Shown here: piece by piece, positions 962 through 62,016 of the stretch
Layout of the letters: every line of letters begins with the position of its first letter
Numbering within the stretch: the first letter of the stretch is position 1
Assembly: GCA_965223545.1 (NCBI GenBank)
Contig: OZ245006.1
Coordinates: 576,001-640,000 of the forward strand
Source: Planctomycetota bacterium
Lineage (GTDB): Bacteria > Planctomycetota > UBA1135 > UBA2386
Reading direction: 5' to 3'
DNA: 64,000 bases
The notes under the pieces: generated by a model
What the model was told of the DNA's origin: nothing
The model's input: only the letters and a program-made list of their open reading frames with translations
Database searches by the model: none
Made by a program: the position numbers and the translations under genes

Positions 962-1163
962 CTCAGCGCGGCCGGGGCCGCAACCAAACTCGGATGCCGC
1001 TCTTGCCGGAGCGGGTTGGAAGTTCTGACACATCCGTCGCCGCGCTGAGCGCAGACGCCAGTGTTGTTTCGGAGCGTCCGGGAGTTGCGGTATCGAAGTC
1101 CTGACGACAGCGGGCCTTCGGCAATGTTGTCGCCGCTCGAAGACTCTCGGCCCCGGACGCTCA
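962..1163 (+). repeat. ~200-bp palindromic repeat, copy R1 (diverged subtype)
   Basis: ctcagcgcggccggggccgcaaccaaa...cgcgctgagc...gtgttg...tcgaag...gttgtcgccgc.cgaaga.tctcggccccggacgctca, shared with copies at 21546, 35109, 35310, 38321/39911 and 61925; CTCA at both ends. Confidence 0.9.
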
Positions 1164-21545: not shown

Positions 21546-21650
21546 CTCAGCGCGGCCGGGGCCGCAACGGAGCATTCTGCGACCCGAGCGTCGGTCGCAG
21601 GTCCGGCGGTCGCCGGCGGCCGCGCTGAGCCCGGAGGCACTGTGTGTGTC
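21546..21650 (+). repeat. ~200-bp palindromic repeat, copy R2 (left half only)
   Basis: ctcagcgcggccggggccgcaac...ggcggccgcgctgagcccggaggc, nearly identical to 38321-38420; lies between convergent genes. Confidence 0.88.
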
Positions 21651-33679: not shown

Positions 33680-35158
33680 ATGACGCGAACACCAGTGATT
33701 CTGTTGACCGGTGCGACCGGATACGTCGGCGGCCGCCTCCGCGCCGCCCTGGAAGCCGAGGGCGACTCGCTGCGATGCATGGCCCGGCGACCCGAGAACC
33801 TCCGCTCCCGCGTGTCGTCTTCGACCGAGGTCGTCGCGGGCGACGTGCTCGATCCCGACTCGCTCCAGGACGCTCTGAGCGGCACCAAGGTGGCCTACTA
33901 CCTGGTGCATTCCATGGGTTCCAAGGCCGACTTCGAAGAGAGAGATCGGCGTGCGGCGACCAACTTCGCAACGGCTGCGCGCGCGGCCGGACTCCGACGG
34001 ATCATCTACCTCGGGGGACTCGCCGAGCCCGGGTCGGATCTCTCCGCCCACCTTCGCAGCCGCCACGAAGTCGGCGAGATTCTGCGCACGTCCGGCTGCC
34101 AAGTCATCGAGCTGCGGGCATCGATCGTGATCGGCGCGGGGAGTCTGTCGTTCGAATTGGTCCGGTCGTTGGTCGAGCGGCTTCCCGTCATGATCACGCC
34201 GAAGTGGACCACGGTGGAGGCGCAGCCGATCGCGGTCGAAGATCTCATCGACTACTTGATGGCCTGCAGGCGGCTCGAAGGCACCGAGAACCGCATCTAC
34301 GAGATCGGAGGAGCCGATCGCGTCTCCTACGAAGGCCTGATGCGAGAATACGCCCGCCAGCGAGGCCTGCGCCGGTTCATGCTCCGCGTGCCCGTCATCA
34401 CCCCGTGGCTCTCGAGCCTCTGGCTCGGCCTGATCACGCCGGTCTTTGCCCGGATCGGGCGCAAGCTCATCGAGAGCATCAAGAGCCCCTCCGTGGTCCG
34501 CGACCCCTCGGCGGTCGTCGACTTCGACATCGAACCCACCGGGATGAGTTCTGCTATCGCCCGCGCCCTCGCCGACGAAGAAGCCTCGTTCGTTGAGAGC
34601 CGTTGGTCGGACGCACTCTCCAGCGGCGGCGACGTCGTGACCTGGGCGGGGGTCCGCTTCGGCAACCGGCTCGTCGACCGCCGCTCGCAGGTGCTCGCTC
34701 TGGAGCCCGTCGCTGCGTTCGCACCAATCCGTCGCATCGGTGGCAGGAACGGGTGGTACGCGTTCAACTGGCTCTGGAGCCTGCGCGGGACGATCGACCT
34801 CCTGCTCGGCGGCGTGGGCACGAGACGCGGGCGGTCACATCCGGACCGCGTCCGCGTCGGGGATGCCATCGACTTCTGGCGAGTGGAGGCATACGAGCCC
34901 GATCGACGGTTGCGCCTCTCGGCCGAGATGAAGCTCCCGGGAAGGGCATGGCTCGAGTTCGAAGCCAAGCCACAAGGCGCCGGCTCGGTGGTCTGCCAAA
35001 CCGCCGTCTTCGACCCCGTCGGTCTCGGCGGCCTGGCATACTGGTACCTCGTGTACCCACTGCACGCGCTCGTCTTTCGCGGCATGCTGAACGGGGTCAC
35101 GCGGGAAGCTCAGCGCGGCCGCGGCCGCAACCAAAGACCGAGCGCACCACGACAGTAG
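33680..35158 (+). CDS. NAD(P)-dependent SDR/epimerase with DUF2867-like C-terminus (YbjT-like)
   Basis: LLTGATGYVGGRL, YYLVHSM, HLRSRHEVG, GGRNGW, DFWRVE, AEMKLPGRAWLEF; last ~16 codons come from repeat R3. Confidence 0.9.
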   Translation: MTRTPVILLTGATGYVGGRLRAALEAEGDSLRCMARRPENLRSRVSSSTEVVAGDVLDPDSLQDALSGTKVAYYLVHSMGSKADFEERDRRAATNFATAARAAGLRRIIYLGGLAEPGSDLSAHLRSRHEVGEILRTSGCQVIELRASIVIGAGSLSFELVRSLVERLPVMITPKWTTVEAQPIAVEDLIDYLMACRRLEGTENRIYEIGGADRVSYEGLMREYARQRGLRRFMLRVPVITPWLSSLWLGLITPVFARIGRKLIESIKSPSVVRDPSAVVDFDIEPTGMSSAIARALADEEASFVESRWSDALSSGGDVVTWAGVRFGNRLVDRRSQVLALEPVAAFAPIRRIGGRNGWYAFNWLWSLRGTIDLLLGGVGTRRGRSHPDRVRVGDAIDFWRVEAYEPDRRLRLSAEMKLPGRAWLEFEAKPQGAGSVVCQTAVFDPVGLGGLAYWYLVYPLHALVFRGMLNGVTREAQRGRGRNQRPSAPRQ

Positions 35159-35519
35159 CGGAGCCCGCGAATCCAGCGGTGCTGGGCGGCCGCGCTGAGC
35201 CCGGAGGCCAGTGTTGTCTTCGAGCCTCCGGGAGCTGCGTTGTCGAATTCCCGGCGACGACGGGCCTTCCGAAAGGTTGTTGCCGCTCGAACATTCTCGG
35301 ACCCCGAGGCTCAGTGCGGCCGCGGCCGCAACGGTATCAAAGACCGAGCGCACCACGACAGTAGCGGAGCCCGCGAATCCAGCGGTGCTGGGCGGCCGCG
35401 CTGAGCCCAGAGGCCAGTGTTGTCTTCGAGCCTCCGGGAGCTGCGTTGTCGAAGTTCCAGCGGCATCAAGCCTTCGAAAATGTTGTCGCCGCGCGAAGAT
35501 TCTCGGCCCCGGACGCTCC
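35109..35519 (+). repeat. Two tandem copies (R3 35109-35313, R4 35310-35519) of the ~200-bp palindromic repeat, each with an empty IS target
   Basis: Direct repeat with periods of 201 and 206 bp; perfect 15-bp inverted repeat 35108-35122/35186-35200; tcgAGcctccgg at 35220-35231 and 35426-35437. Confidence 0.95.
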
Positions 35520-35548
35520 GCGACTGGCGGAACTCGGGCTTGCGGGCC

Positions 35549-36004
35549 CTACCGGCACCGCGCCGCCAGCACCGCATCGAGGGTGACGTCGTGGCGATAG
35601 TCGAAGAGCTTGACCAGCCGCGGGCGGATGACGAAGCGATCGGCGCACCGCCCCAACGCGCCGAACGGAGGGGCGTAGTCGATCTCGTCGCGAAGCCGGC
35701 ACCCGGCCGCGTGCGCGAAGAAGAGGTGCTTGTGGCGCCACTCGGCGAACGGCCCCTCCACCATGACGTCCTCGAAGAACCGGTTCTTCTCGTAGGCGAC
35801 GTGCTCGGCCACGATCGTCGTCCACGACAGCCCGATCTTGGTGCGAACCCGCACCCTCGTTCCGACCTCGAGACCCGTGGGTGGTTCGATGATCTCGGTC
35901 CGCTCCCACGGCGGCTGCAGCAGGGCGAACGCGTCCGGCCGCTCATGGAACGCGAAGACCTCCTCCACAGTGGCGGGCAACACGCTCTCCTTCACGAATC
36001 GCAC
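35549..36004 (-). CDS. SRPBCC-family protein
   Basis: VEEVFAFHERPDAF..LQPPW, FEDVMVEGPFAEWRHKHLF, D.IDY.PPFG.LG, LFDYRH. Confidence 0.85.
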   Translation of the reverse strand: MRFVKESVLPATVEEVFAFHERPDAFALLQPPWERTEIIEPPTGLEVGTRVRVRTKIGLSWTTIVAEHVAYEKNRFFEDVMVEGPFAEWRHKHLFFAHAAGCRLRDEIDYAPPFGALGRCADRFVIRPRLVKLFDYRHDVTLDAVLAARCR

Positions 36005-36057
36005 GACCCGTCCGAGTCTACCTCGAGTCGGGCCGCGAACCCGGCCTCTTCCGCTGA

Positions 36058-38325
36058 TCACAGCGGCGCGCGCGTGAACACGCCGCGACCGTAGGTGCCG
36101 ATCGCGATCTCGTTGGAGCGCGGGTCGTAGACCATGTCGGTCACGTAGGGCGTGGTCGGCAACCCGTCGTTGTAGCTCTGCCACGTGGTGCCGCGGTCGG
36201 TCGACACGAAGACCCCGAGGTCGGAGCCGATGTAGAGGTGGCCGCGATCGTCCGGTGACCACAGCACACAGCGCACGTTGATCATCGATCCCAGGTTGCC
36301 CGTGCAATCGTTCCAGGTCTCGCCGGAATCGCGGCTGCAGACCACCCGGGTTCTAGTGATCCCACTCAGCCCCGCGATGACGAGGCGCCCGGCGTCGCTG
36401 ACCGAGCCGAACTCGATGTCGGTCACCTGCTTGCCCGACCACGATCCCGATCTGAGGGTGGCGAGATGAAGCGTCGGGTTGGCCGGAGTGGAGACGCGCA
36501 TGGGAACGATGCTGCCGTCGAGCCCGACCACGATCACTTCCGCAGTCGGCGTGGCGAGCGTCGCAGCAACCTTGGTCGGCACGGTTCCGGCCGGTACCGA
36601 GAACCGCTGGGACCACGCGGTGCCGGGGCCGGGGGTGCTGTAGACCGCGCCGCCGAAGTTCGTCAGGAAGGACCGGCCAGACCAGGTCAGGTCGGCGGTC
36701 CAGGGTTGACCACTCGGCAAACCGCTGGAGAACGAGTTCCACGCGCCACACGTCTGGCTCAGCGAGGGCGGGTACTGGAAGCGAAACTGACTGGTCGATG
36801 ACAGGCCGACCAGGGTCGAGTACAGCGTGCCGTCCTTGAACAACACGTCGCCACCGTCGCAGCAGGTGATTGCGTCCCACTGCCGGAACTCGTTGGGCCC
36901 CATCTGGACGCCGTTGTCCTGGGTGCCGATCGCGTATCGAGTTCCCGCGAACTTGTTGGCCTGATCCGGATTCACGGCGAGGGTACGCACCTGCATCGCG
37001 GCCAGCGAAGTCCCGCCGACCGTCCGCCATGTCGTGCCGACGTCCTCGGAACGCACGAGGCCGCCGTCGTTGCCGGCAAAGACGACGTTTCGCTTGGTGA
37101 CGTGTGGCCAGATGCACTGCACGTCCTCGTGCGTGAGGTTCGCGGAAGCCGTCCATGTCACACCCGCGTCGGTCGAGGTGTACATCGCGCGGGCGTTGCA
37201 ACCGGTCCACACCACGTTCGGGTTCGAATCCGAGACCGCGATCGCGTTGTTGTGTCGCATCTGACCCGCCGCCGGAACCGGCGTCGTCACCTGCGTCCAG
37301 CTCTGGCCACGGTCCATCGACCGCCAGATTCCGGCCCAAGTGTCATCGGGCGCCGCGACGCTGGCGTAGACCGCGTTGTGCACCCCGATCCTCCCGGCGC
37401 CAAGCGCGATCCGCGCCAAGGCCGGCGGCGCCCCCGGCAGAGCCTTGGTGACGAACGACCCGGCGGTCCCCTGGCTGCCACTCACGTGCACCACGCCATT
37501 CCGCGTCGTCGCGACGACCGAGAAGCTCCCCGTCAACGGCTGGCCGACGACCTCGACCGCCGCCATTTGATCGACGACGACCCGGTCCCAAGTTCCGGCT
37601 TCGCCGCGGAACAATCCCTGGCTCGAGGCGACGAAGACGACGTCCGAGTTGGGATCGCCCCCCGGCTGCACGTCGATGTCGGAAACGTACGCCGTGATGA
37701 GCGAAGTGAACGCCACGCGGCTCCACGACAGGCCCCCGTCCGAGGTGGTGTAGAGCAGCCCCATGGAAGGGGCGCCCGTGCCACCGAAACCGGTTCCGAA
37801 GCTGCCGGTGCCGACCCACGCGGTTCCGGACCGGACCAAGTGGGTTTCGATCGCGCTGATCGAAGGGTGTGCGATCGCGTCGAAGGCGGGCGCCCACGAA
37901 GCCCCCTCGTCGGTACTGCGCCACAGACCACCGCTCGAGGCGCCGGCCCACAGCAGCGACGGGTTGCCGAAGTCCTGGGCGAAACTGATGATGCGACCGG
38001 TCCAAGTTCCGGCCACCGGTAGACAGCCCGCGGGCCCTTGCGCACCGACCGGTCCGACGAACTCCCAGGGCAGGGCCGCGCCGTCGGCCTCGGGTGCGCC
38101 ACCGCGAGGGTCTCCGCCGGCATACAGGTGCGCCAGCCGAACACGGGCGACTTCGGCCGCCCCCTCTGGTTGGTAGGGGTCCGTCTGCTCCGCTGCTGGA
38201 GCTGGGACGCCCTGCGCAGTGCGTTGGTCGGCGTGCGTGCATGCCACGCCGAACAGGGCCGACGCGCTGGCGGCAGCGAGAGCAGAAAAACAGGTACGAC
38301 TGGATCGCGTCGACGGGGATCTCAG
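36058..38325 (-). pseudogene. BNR/Asp-box (sortilin/Vps10-like) beta-propeller, probable lipoprotein, 5' end separated by repeat + IS insertion
   Basis: S.D.G.(T/S)W Asp-boxes, GGLWRS, GNDGG, GTQDNG, GTYGRG. There is no ATG/GTG start in front of the signal peptide; the native start is reconstructed at 40032 or 40002. Confidence 0.7.
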
Positions 38326-38436
38326 CGCGGCCGGGGCCGCAACCAAACACGGAGCATTCCGCGACCCGAGCGTCGGTCGCGGGTTCCGCGGTCGCCGGCG
38401 GCCGCGCTGAGCCCAGAGGCCAGTGTTGTCTTCGAG
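38321..38436 (+). repeat. Repeat copy R5, left half (interrupted by IS)
   Basis: Shares the conserved arms of R2-R4 up to cagtgttgtcttcgAG, then switches to IS sequence. Confidence 0.93.
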
Positions 38437-38512
38437 ATGGGATGAGAGGGTCGATCCCTCCGACGCAGTCGCCACACAATGGCGCTGCAAAATCAAAGGA
38501 GCAGATCGACCC

Positions 38513-39589
38513 ATGACCAAAGTTACCGCTCAGACCTCCCCCGTGACCATCGGTCTCGACATTGGCGATCGGAACATCCACTACTGCGCACTGGACGCGT
38601 CGCGGACGGTCGTTGCGCGGGGCAGTTTCCCGACGACGCCGACAGCGCTCTCGAAGGCGCTGAGCGACTTCCCGGGCGCCAGAGTCGCTCTCGAGGCCGG
38701 CTCGCAGTCGGCCTGGATGTCTCGGCGGTTGCGCTCGGAGGGCTACGACGTTCACGTCGTGGACCCGCGCCGAGTGCAGCTGATCGCCAAGGATCCTCGC
38801 AAGACCGACCGGCGCGATGCCGAGACCCTGGCTCGCCTGGAGGCAGGGATGCCCGAGTTGCTCGGCACGATCCACCACCGCAGCGAGCAGGCACAGGCCG
38901 ACCTGTCGGTCATTCGTGCGCGCGACCTGCTGGTGAGGATGCGGACGATGGCAGTGCAGCAGGTCCGGAGCCTGGCGAAGGGCTTCGGCGTCCGGCTGCC
39001 GTCGGCATCGACCGCGGCGTTCCCGAAGCGAGCTCGCGAGTCCATGCCGGTCCTGCTACTCACTGCGGCGGAGCCGCTGCTGGACTTGATCGCCGACCTG
39101 TCCCGCCGGATCGACGAGCTCGACAAGGCGCTCGTCGAGGCGAGCCGCGAGCGATACCCCGAGGTCGCCGTCGTGCAGCAAGTCAACGGCGTGGGGCCGG
39201 TCACAGCGACCGCGTTCGTGCTGACGATCGAGGATCCGACACGATTCGCCGAAAGCCGCCGCGTGGGCTCCTGGCTCGGCTTGTGCCCAAAGAGCTTCGC
39301 GTCGGGCGACAGCAATCCGGAGCTGTCGATCAGCAAGGCTGGCGACGGCTATCTGAGACGGCTTCTGGTGCAGTGTGCGCACTACATCCTCGGCCCGTTC
39401 GGCAAGGACTGTGACCTCCGGCGCTTCGGGCAACGCCTGATCGCCCGCGGCGGCCGCGGCGCGAGGAAACGCGCGGCGGTCGCGGTTGCCCGCAAGCTCG
39501 CGCTACTGCTGCATCGGCTGTGGCGTCATGGCTTGGTCTACGACCCACTCCACAACAGCGACCGCGTAGCTGCCCACACCGCGGTATGA
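38513..39589 (+). CDS. IS110-family DEDD recombinase/transposase (358 aa)
   Basis: AAGGAG RBS; IGLD, ALEAG, KTDRRDA (DEDD); GVGPVTA, WLGLCP..FASG (catalytic Ser), SKAGDGYLRRLLVQCA, AVAVARKLA. Confidence 0.96.
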   Translation: MTKVTAQTSPVTIGLDIGDRNIHYCALDASRTVVARGSFPTTPTALSKALSDFPGARVALEAGSQSAWMSRRLRSEGYDVHVVDPRRVQLIAKDPRKTDRRDAETLARLEAGMPELLGTIHHRSEQAQADLSVIRARDLLVRMRTMAVQQVRSLAKGFGVRLPSASTAAFPKRARESMPVLLLTAAEPLLDLIADLSRRIDELDKALVEASRERYPEVAVVQQVNGVGPVTATAFVLTIEDPTRFAESRRVGSWLGLCPKSFASGDSNPELSISKAGDGYLRRLLVQCAHYILGPFGKDCDLRRFGQRLIARGGRGARKRAAVAVARKLALLLHRLWRHGLVYDPLHNSDRVAAHTAV

Positions 39590-39890
39590 CCCAACCATGA
39601 TCGCCCCACCCCCAACCAACCGAATACCGTGGAGGAACCTGGCGTGATGCCGCTCCTGCACTGCTGAAGACTCACCGCCCGATCCCGGCGACAGCGACCG
39701 GAGGCTTGGCCCTCGAGGCCGTTATCGAGAAAGCTGCGCCGGGTCGGACGGATCTCATCGTGCACCGGTCTCGGACGAGGCCATCAGAGTGCGTATGGAA
39801 GCCTGCGGAGTCCGAAGCTTGTCGCGCAGGGCGGCGCCAAGGCGCCCAGATTCTCAAGAAGAACAGATCCACAGACAAAGAGCTGTTGAC
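39590..39890 (+). ncRNA. Predicted bridge RNA/seekRNA of the IS1111-type element (ends approximate; core about 39679-39803)
   Basis: Target loop with guides ccggaggct (39698-39706) and tcgag (39725-39729); donor loop with guides atctcatc (39752-39759) and atggaag (39795-39801); each pair brackets an internal hairpin. Confidence 0.85.
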
Positions 39891-39891
39891 G
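39886..39891 (+). promoter_or_regulatory. -35 half of the circle-junction promoter
   Basis: TTGACG; in the predicted circle it sits 17 nt before GAAGAT, which forms across the junction. Confidence 0.65.
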
Positions 39892-39910
39892 GGATCGCCC
39901 CTCTCATGGA

Positions 39911-40001
39911 AGCCTCCGGGAGCTGCGTTGTCGAAGTTCCAGCGGCATCGAGCCTTCCGAAAGGTTGTCGCCGCGCGAAGATTTGCGGACCCTGAGGCTC
40001 A
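39911..40001 (+). repeat. Repeat copy R5, right half
   Basis: AGcctccgggagctgcgttgtcgaagttccagcggcatc...gaggctca continues exactly where the left half stopped (compare 35429-35519). Confidence 0.93.
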
Positions 40002-40233
40002 CGGTGCGTTTTGCGGATGCGGGGTGTGACATGCCCCGGGCAGTGCCGCGCCGCAGCGACCGCAACACCCAACACGGCAACTTCCCCATATCTCTCACCC
40101 CTCGGTGTTGCATTCCGGCGGTCACGACACTCTCAACGAGGCGATGGCGCTTGACCGCAACACCTAGCCGACCGCTGCGCCGCGCTTCGGCGGCCACTCG
40201 GCCATACTACGGCGCAGGCGAGACCCTCCGCGA

Positions 40234-61927: not shown

Positions 61928-62016
61928 GCTGCCGGGAATCCTCGCGGCGACAACCTTTCCGAAGGCCCGCAGTCGTCAGCGCTTCGATACCGCAACGCCC
62001 GGACGCTCAACAGCAC
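61925..62016 (-). repeat. Repeat copy R6 (right half, inverted; R1 subtype)
   Basis: Reverse complement gagcgtccgggcgttgcggtatcgaagcgctgacgactgcgggccttcggaaaggttgtcgccgcg...gctca matches 1072-1163. Confidence 0.85.

Follow-up and report, generated by a model that had tools for sequence, protein, structure and literature searches.

A bridge-RNA insertion sequence of the IS110 family probably programmed against a REP/BIME-like repeat, and a second IS110 element on the same repeat

IS-A, the insertion sequence in the window (the whole 64,000-nucleotide stretch of DNA analysed here), is very probably a bridge-RNA element programmed against a 12-bp word that is found only in a dispersed REP/BIME-like repeat, with base pairing explaining its choice of site and with the repeat shared between it and a second element, IS-B. 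The genome contains four copies of IS-A, one of which is split by IS66, and all four were observed at the same base of the repeat and in one orientation, with differing flanks. Each left end is preceded by tcgAG and four of the five right ends are followed by AGcctccggga, the fifth being an internal duplication; the AG core is common to both junctions in 4/4 copies, with no other duplication. Empty copies of the exact 12-mer number 61 genome-wide, every one of them within a match of the repeat; a 5th-order Markov model predicts about 5, which indicates that their number is not due to chance. This uniform placement, together with the covariation between guides and flanks described below, bears out the claim of an earlier note on this DNA that the guide of the IS is programmed against the repeat.

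A domain search of the IS-A recombinase revealed PF01548 (N-terminal DEDD) and PF02371 (C-terminal), both over the cut-off. Sub-terminal inverted repeats (atgagaggg...gatccc and gggatc...cccctctcat) lie 5 and 3 bases inward of the cores, and the non-coding DNA downstream of tnp is long, with a right end of 321 bp versus a left end of 76 bp (Table 1). This is the IS1111 layout as described in passages of PMC11208160 and PMC11187229, and IS-A is an IS1111-group member of the IS110 family with the bridge RNA in its right end. Across the computed junction of an IS-A circle, TTGACG and GAAGAT are placed at a spacing of 17 bp. The end-to-end joint of such a circle was not found in four public contig sets, an absence that proves nothing, and Rfam gave no match across positions 35000-40100 of the window.

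The two target guides, CCGGAGGCT and TCGAG, are separated by a small hairpin and match the two target halves on opposite strands; arranged around the AG core they correspond to TCGAG and CCTCCGG, and the two positions that follow the TCGAG guide show no Watson-Crick pairing with the repeat. By inspection, the donor guides are complementary to the ends of IS-A (with one wobble in the left guide, ATCTCATC) and are conserved in homologues, and the CC following the right donor guide can pair with the two target bases that precede the core, which satisfies the handshake rule as given in part of PMC11208158. Minimum-energy folds of the right end did not return a two-loop form and were not better than those of shuffled sequences (z=-0.22, 0.61); stems can be seen by eye and show compensatory variation among homologues.

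As folding of a single sequence misses the two loops, the guide assignment was tested on homologues. The set consisted of the 16 of 118 homologous loci in which the target loop could be parsed and one flank or more was available, IS-A itself being one row; the other loci had no parsable end or loop, and a 78% homologue (L033) was dropped by the search pattern, its guides matching its own flanks by eye. The right guide matched its own flank at 4.2 of 5 positions, compared with 1.67 after shuffling (n=10 distinct guides), and the left guide at 5.2 of 7 positions, compared with 3.3 (n=13 distinct guides); neither observed value was attained in any of 5000 shuffles. In several homologues (L036, L037 and L041) the left guide is only a partial match. 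The two-loop model proposed for the IS-A RNA is based on inspection and this covariation.

A mechanism can be proposed in which a non-coding RNA from the right end of IS-A would form two loops, one for the target and one for the donor. The CCGGAGGCT and TCGAG guides would pair with opposite strands of the 12-bp repeat word, the donor guides would pair with the abutted ends of the excised IS-A circle, and recombination would take place at the AG/CT core, always in one orientation, so that base pairing alone would explain the choice of site. Expression of the RNA, formation of the circle, catalysis and the effects of mismatches are presumed here to follow the pattern of the family.

Table 1. Features of the window and related sites elsewhere; positions that carry no prefix are those of the window.
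Feature	Position	Strand	Basis or remark
Repeat unit R1, mismatched site	962..1162	+	
Repeat unit R2, truncated, stops short of IS-A site	21546..21642	+	
Repeat unit 1 (pad 1), standard head, both IS sites empty	35109..35312	+	
Hairpin of unit 1, 3' arm is the left-target half site	35196..35232		DNA fold
Empty IS-A target in pad 1, TCG-AG-CCTCCGG	35220..35231	+	core AG 35223-35224
Repeat unit 2 (pad 2), in tandem with unit 1	35310..35518	+	
Extra GGTAT in unit 2 head, first five bases of IS-B	35333..35337	+	probable footprint, or IS-B target allele
Second empty IS-A target (pad 2)	35426..35437	+	core AG 35429-35430
5' portion of IS-A-interrupted repeat unit	38321..38436	+	last bases are core AG (38435-38436)
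IS-A	38437-39910		between two AG cores
IS-A left end, with sub-terminal inverted repeat inside	38437..38512	+	
IS-A recombinase, 358 aa, IS110 family	38513..39589	+	PF01548 + PF02371
IS-A right end, bridge RNA region and sub-terminal inverted repeat	39590..39910	+	
Left target guide CCGGAGGCT	39698..39706	+	covariation in homologues
Right target guide TCGAG, five matched positions	39725..39729	+	covariation in homologues
Left donor guide ATCTCATC, matches IS-A left end	39752..39759	+	sequence
Right donor guide ATGGAAG, matches IS-A right end, then handshake bases CC	39795..39801	+	sequence
-35-like TTGACG in IS-A right end	39886-39891		
3' portion of IS-A-interrupted repeat unit	39911..40000	+	first bases are core AG (39911-39912)
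Repeat unit R6, partial, mismatched site	61944..62015	-	
Second GGTAT-bearing unit	G000:C1:537452-537456	minus	
Unit with IS-B (head) and IS-A (hairpin)	L011:327-4140; G000:C1:6847300-6851140		
Duplicated IS-A right end	G000:C1:7063636-7063819	minus	

The two perfect targets reported earlier (TCGAGCCTCCGG) are the only copies in the window when both strands are considered (Table 1), and they lie 3.0-3.2 kb from the IS-A junction, in agreement with the distance of about 3 kb that had been given. The mismatches to the guides in R1, which reads cggAGcgtccgg, and in R6, which reads ttgAGcgtccgg on the minus strand, were likewise recovered, and R2 does lack the IS-A site, ending at about 21642 before it is reached. 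The core had been placed at the boundary between loop and stem of a ccggaggc...gcctccgg hairpin; in the fold of pad 1 it does lie where the loop meets the 3' stem. The left arm of pad 2 contains one mismatch (cccAgaggc), so that only pad 1 has the perfect stem. The DNA fold of the whole pad 1 unit gave z=-2.44. Tandem pairs and triplets are frequent in the repeat (41/156 clusters have more than one unit), which makes two nearby pads unremarkable, and these two are ordinary members of the 61 unfilled targets. An epimerase-like ORF upstream (33695-35158) terminates within unit 1, its last codons and stop being supplied by 35109-35158.

A profile search for the repeat returned 217 matches in 156 clusters, with a unit of 204 positions, amounting to 0.43% of the genome. 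Genes were called with a home-made caller (5708 genes, 90% coding); against this 90% coding background the mean gene overlap of the repeat clusters is 6%, and 3/156 clusters lie inside a gene. Convergent gene pairs flank 53/153 intergenic clusters, compared with 190/2162 background gaps. The suggestion that the repeat serves the IS as a safe harbour agrees with these data, since an almost wholly intergenic repeat fits a low-cost landing site.

REP units are typically ~20-40 bp long. The repeat shows REP/BIME traits in its many copies, extragenic position, palindromic sequence and frequent location between convergent genes, but its 204-bp unit is not of the short REP/BIME size, and it is thus best described as REP-like, not REP. 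For P. putida, a REP unit of 35 bp is given in a passage of PMC12288879. A RAYT (Y1) gene flanking the repeat was not found, as all 14 PF01797 matches lie at least ~5 kb from the listed repeat matches when their coordinates are compared by eye; twelve PF01797 genes are near-identical, Y1-type and not tied to the repeat (~240-320 aa, 88-96% DNA identity, variable 5' boundaries). A reading of the units as integron attC sites, raised by the IS1111-attC precedent, was dropped because the units are scattered over 156 clusters, frequently located between convergent genes. The 30-bp head of the repeat was matched in 5/60 relatives, with many copies in two of them, and one genome (G018) has a homologous tandem repeat with a unit of 183 bp. 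Within the genome studied here, six units of the CCG subtype form a tandem array with a 195-bp period (G000:C1:5215700-5216800) that contains no IS.

The 3' module of the repeat gave 190 matches, 167 of which cover the IS-A site: 61 empty sites of the TCG type, 4 occupied sites, 56 sites of the CTCCG type (the CCG type in the following) and 46 others, including a cgtccgg group. When IS occupancy was tabulated by subtype, as the earlier note had proposed, no copy lay outside the repeat and none in a mismatched subtype, the opposite of what would speak against targeting of the repeat. Occupancy is 4/65 in the TCG type versus 0/56 in the CCG type (p=0.080, Fisher) and 0/102 in all other site words (p=0.022, Fisher), although subtype statistics are weak with only four IS-A copies. 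By inspection, the CCG type departs from the guide only by a U-G wobble, located at position five of the right guide; a single wobble and a p value of 0.08 do not establish escape of this largest other subtype. A true mismatch, two bases away from the core, characterises the cgtccgg type, of which there are 8 exact copies, too few for a test. We consider the cgtccgg variants to be probably poor targets of IS-A and the CCG variant to be probably a weaker wobble target that is not immune. The picture of one parasitised subtype with the others escaping is therefore correct in that 4/4 insertions are in TCG-type sites, but its second half is weak. The sister elements with altered guides that had been expected to hit the other subtypes did not appear: the four guide regions are identical, neither an altered-guide sister nor a further copy of the scaffold was found in the genome by tblastn, a PF02371 scan (38 matches, three types) and a scaffold search, and the suggested ccggacgct guide does not occur next to the one copy taken to represent each IS110 type.

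The confinement of IS-A to TCG-type sites, and its contrast with all other site words, could reflect an arms race in which the CCG and cgtccgg subtypes are escape alleles chased by sisters with rewritten guides, and homologues elsewhere do carry different guides, one of them (L035) against a homologous repeat. We nevertheless regard this as improbable, since the genome yielded no such sister, an occupancy of 4/65 implies low pressure to escape, the gacgc/gcgtc variant retains the hairpin of the repeat itself, so that no IS is needed to account for the change, and a related repeat is present in genera where no IS-A homologue at the IS-A site was found. Selection of the site by structure would mean that the recombinase needs the target hairpin, with the left-target arm paired with the far arm and the right target in the loop. 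A hairpin requirement has been proposed for ISPpu10, the integration of which is raised ~two-fold by a stem-loop (10.64898/2026.03.19.712850, in part), and in IS-A the left-target half site does form one stem arm, the core lies at the loop edge and 8-9 of 9 stem pairs are present at 3/4 occupied sites. Such a gate is nonetheless unlikely: the occupied stems (8, 9, 6 and 8 of 9 pairs) mirror the empty pool (6 pairs at 19 sites, 7 at 4, 8 at 32 and 9 at 6), and a 12-mer found solely in the repeat explains the specificity without structure. With a 6/9 stem in 1/4 occupied sites and 19/61 empty ones, the hairpin cannot be maintained as a requirement, but it may help IS-A insertion. BLAST alignments of the IS copies also run into the repeat on both sides, as they would if the flanking repeat halves belonged to the IS and travelled along, without any need for targeting; however, the flanks differ among copies, which already refutes this, identity ends exactly at the AG cores, and homologues combine the same ends with unrelated flanks, which leaves this explanation with practically no probability. 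Pairing of the guides with the repeat word thus stays the preferred account of site choice.

A probable relic of IS-A activity is also present. In the copy split by IS66 the last 183 bp are duplicated, and the right end is joined at AG to DNA of the element's own right target guide (Table 1). A separate 185-base contig of higher depth covers the duplicated stretch in run X1, which argues against an assembly error. The arrangement would fit an insertion of the element into itself by half-match recombination, with a later collapse. The repeat is avoided by both of two other multicopy IS (0/14 IS66 ends and 0/46 ends of a third IS110, which has 23 copies by PF02371 matches). The flanks of the third IS110 are often short inverted repeats or copies of its own ends (near C1:2828846, 4841346 and 7652289); two of its copies flank a Y1 transposase match at C1:3914571, and tandem pairs occur at 1715-1717 kb and 4827-4829 kb.

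Among the homologues, a 62% homologue (L035) occupies a homologous repeat at a point a few bases from the IS-A site; its orientation is reversed and its guide is a different one. A 61% homologue from G018 is directed at yet another repeat, of which 37 copies are empty. The IS-A clade thus repeatedly targets intergenic repeats. Many homologues (L034, L037, L113-L115) have right guides ending in CTGAG or GTGAG and insert just 3' of a TGA stop. Another locus (L185/L186; G018:C6:738353-738428, minus) holds a 14-base left-end remnant of an IS-A homologue between two target halves, with a second left-end-like word 45 bases on, and looks like a relic of imprecise excision. A further IS left end (L182; G018:C3:1119589, minus) has no recombinase match, and the head of the homologous repeat comes after it within 70 bases.

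A second, unrelated IS110 that uses a different site of the repeat had been overlooked. IS-B belongs to the IS110 group, has a protein of 500 aa and a long left end with the bridge RNA, and is present in 11 copies; its recombinase shares 34% identity with that of IS-A across merely 70 residues. It inserts in the repeat head, ~90 bp upstream of the IS-A site. Nine of the 11 copies are in a full head, one is in a truncated unit and one is in a 15-base match outside the repeat; one of the off-repeat IS-B sites lies between predicted genes. A single unit holds IS-B in its head and IS-A in its hairpin, ~90 bp apart (Table 1). Empty copies of the standard head word, GCCGCAACCAAA, number 95. With the thresholds applied, relatives of IS-B with DNA context were found neither among 338 genomes of the class and 400 of the phylum nor in viral contigs; plasmid matches are only ~30% identical, and the 103 protein homologues come without such context. 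The depth of IS-B is ~10-fold that of its flanks in run X3 and ~2.5-fold in X1, but contig depth is no copy number, and these ratios give no more than a hint that IS-B spread recently.

The head of unit 2 carries an extra GGTAT, as does one more unit elsewhere, giving two in all (Table 1). It is moderately probable that the GGTAT in pad 2 is a footprint of an IS-B copy that had inserted into a standard head. It could instead be a rare natural allele and the true target of IS-B, with a shared TAT core and with 11/13 such sites filled, a possibility that deserves weight but is doubtful. TAT is common to both IS-B junctions and would be a canonical shared core, the donor-loop geometry fits the inner boundary, and the candidate guides can pair with the allele through wobbles; the points against a footprint are that the outer boundary leaves no shared core and that the donor loop also fits the inner boundary. 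However, at least four body subtypes and several head variants are represented among the 13 sites, and the empty alleles are 79/80 identical to their standard siblings and at most 72-73/80 to another IS-B/GGTAT site. A search of 90 family genomes did not recover the allele at repeat scale, giving one isolated match in each of two, and the circle has to keep GGTAT for a perfect -35 and a TAT-starting -10 to arise at a spacing of 17 bp. Each of these points favours the footprint, as does the observation, by inspection, that with the outer boundary the two candidate right guides terminate in identical core-pairing bases. Against it, portions of recent work (10.1101/2025.10.25.684509; 10.64898/2026.08.31.748434) find that the empty site is rarely rejoined, though such rejoining was detected for IS621 (PMC13626964, in part). 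A contig joint across IS-B (543 to 2479) was set aside: its depth is that of a single copy, and the second GGTAT allele, which lies elsewhere in the genome, accounts for it.

On the footprint reading, a wider model can be put forward tentatively, as possible rather than probable: the repeat would be partitioned between two bridge-RNA systems of different groups, IS-B would depart from textbook rules by acting without a shared two-base core (target AC, donor AT) and with two left boundaries five bases apart, and the GGTAT left behind on leaving by the inner one would remove the site from its own pool, so that pad 2 would have been visited and would now be immune, thereby recording an earlier RNA-guided transposition. 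If the footprint reading is true, it would be natural evidence that excision can be double-strand and non-scarless and that a bridge recombinase can work without a shared core, and it would bear on the question of cut-out versus copy-out and on scarless editing. The genome also offers a natural test bed for IS-A, with 61 matched, 56 single-wobble and a few mismatched targets from which the rules on mismatches and hairpins could be read for an IS1111-group recombinase.

We found no Planctomycetota paper on a REP-type repeat with an IS110 (one unrelated paper was returned), and literature from 2024 onwards yielded no description of such a footprint for IS110 excision, although the supplements may list cases. 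The core finding repeats the published targeting of REP by IS621, ISPa11, ISPpu9 and ISPpu10 in a new host group and a new repeat; only the sharing of the repeat at two sites and the possible IS-B footprint go beyond the ordinary. A close parallel is ISPa11, an IS1111-group element that targets the REP of P. aeruginosa, and which has sub-terminal inverted repeats and a long non-coding region after tnp and, according to parts of PMC11187229 and PMC1525189, is RNA-guided to a single position in an extragenic repeat that holds all of its copies. Its host group and repeat are unrelated to those described here, where a 204-bp unit has several hairpins and one of them is the target. The E. coli element IS621 has a two-loop bridge RNA, as proposed for IS-A, and is similar in its CT core (AG on the plus strand here) and its REP-type target (PMC11208160 and PMC11208158, in part), as well as in the handshake bases after the right guides, but it carries the RNA in its left end and has short inverted repeats, whereas the RNA of IS-A is in the right end. 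Half-match recombination of IS621, as presented in part of 10.64898/2026.08.31.748434, could explain the duplicated right end of IS-A and perhaps the IS-B footprint; those data come from in vitro and editing experiments, whereas the case here would be a natural relic. ISPpu9 and ISPpu10 of P. putida provide a precedent for two IS110-family elements on one repeat family (passages of PMC1525189 and PMC12288879), and their stem-loop target likewise includes the left target. They differ in that the two elements have one common insertion point and the position of the pairing arm relative to the core is reversed, whereas here an IS1111-group and an IS110-group element use two points of the same repeat.
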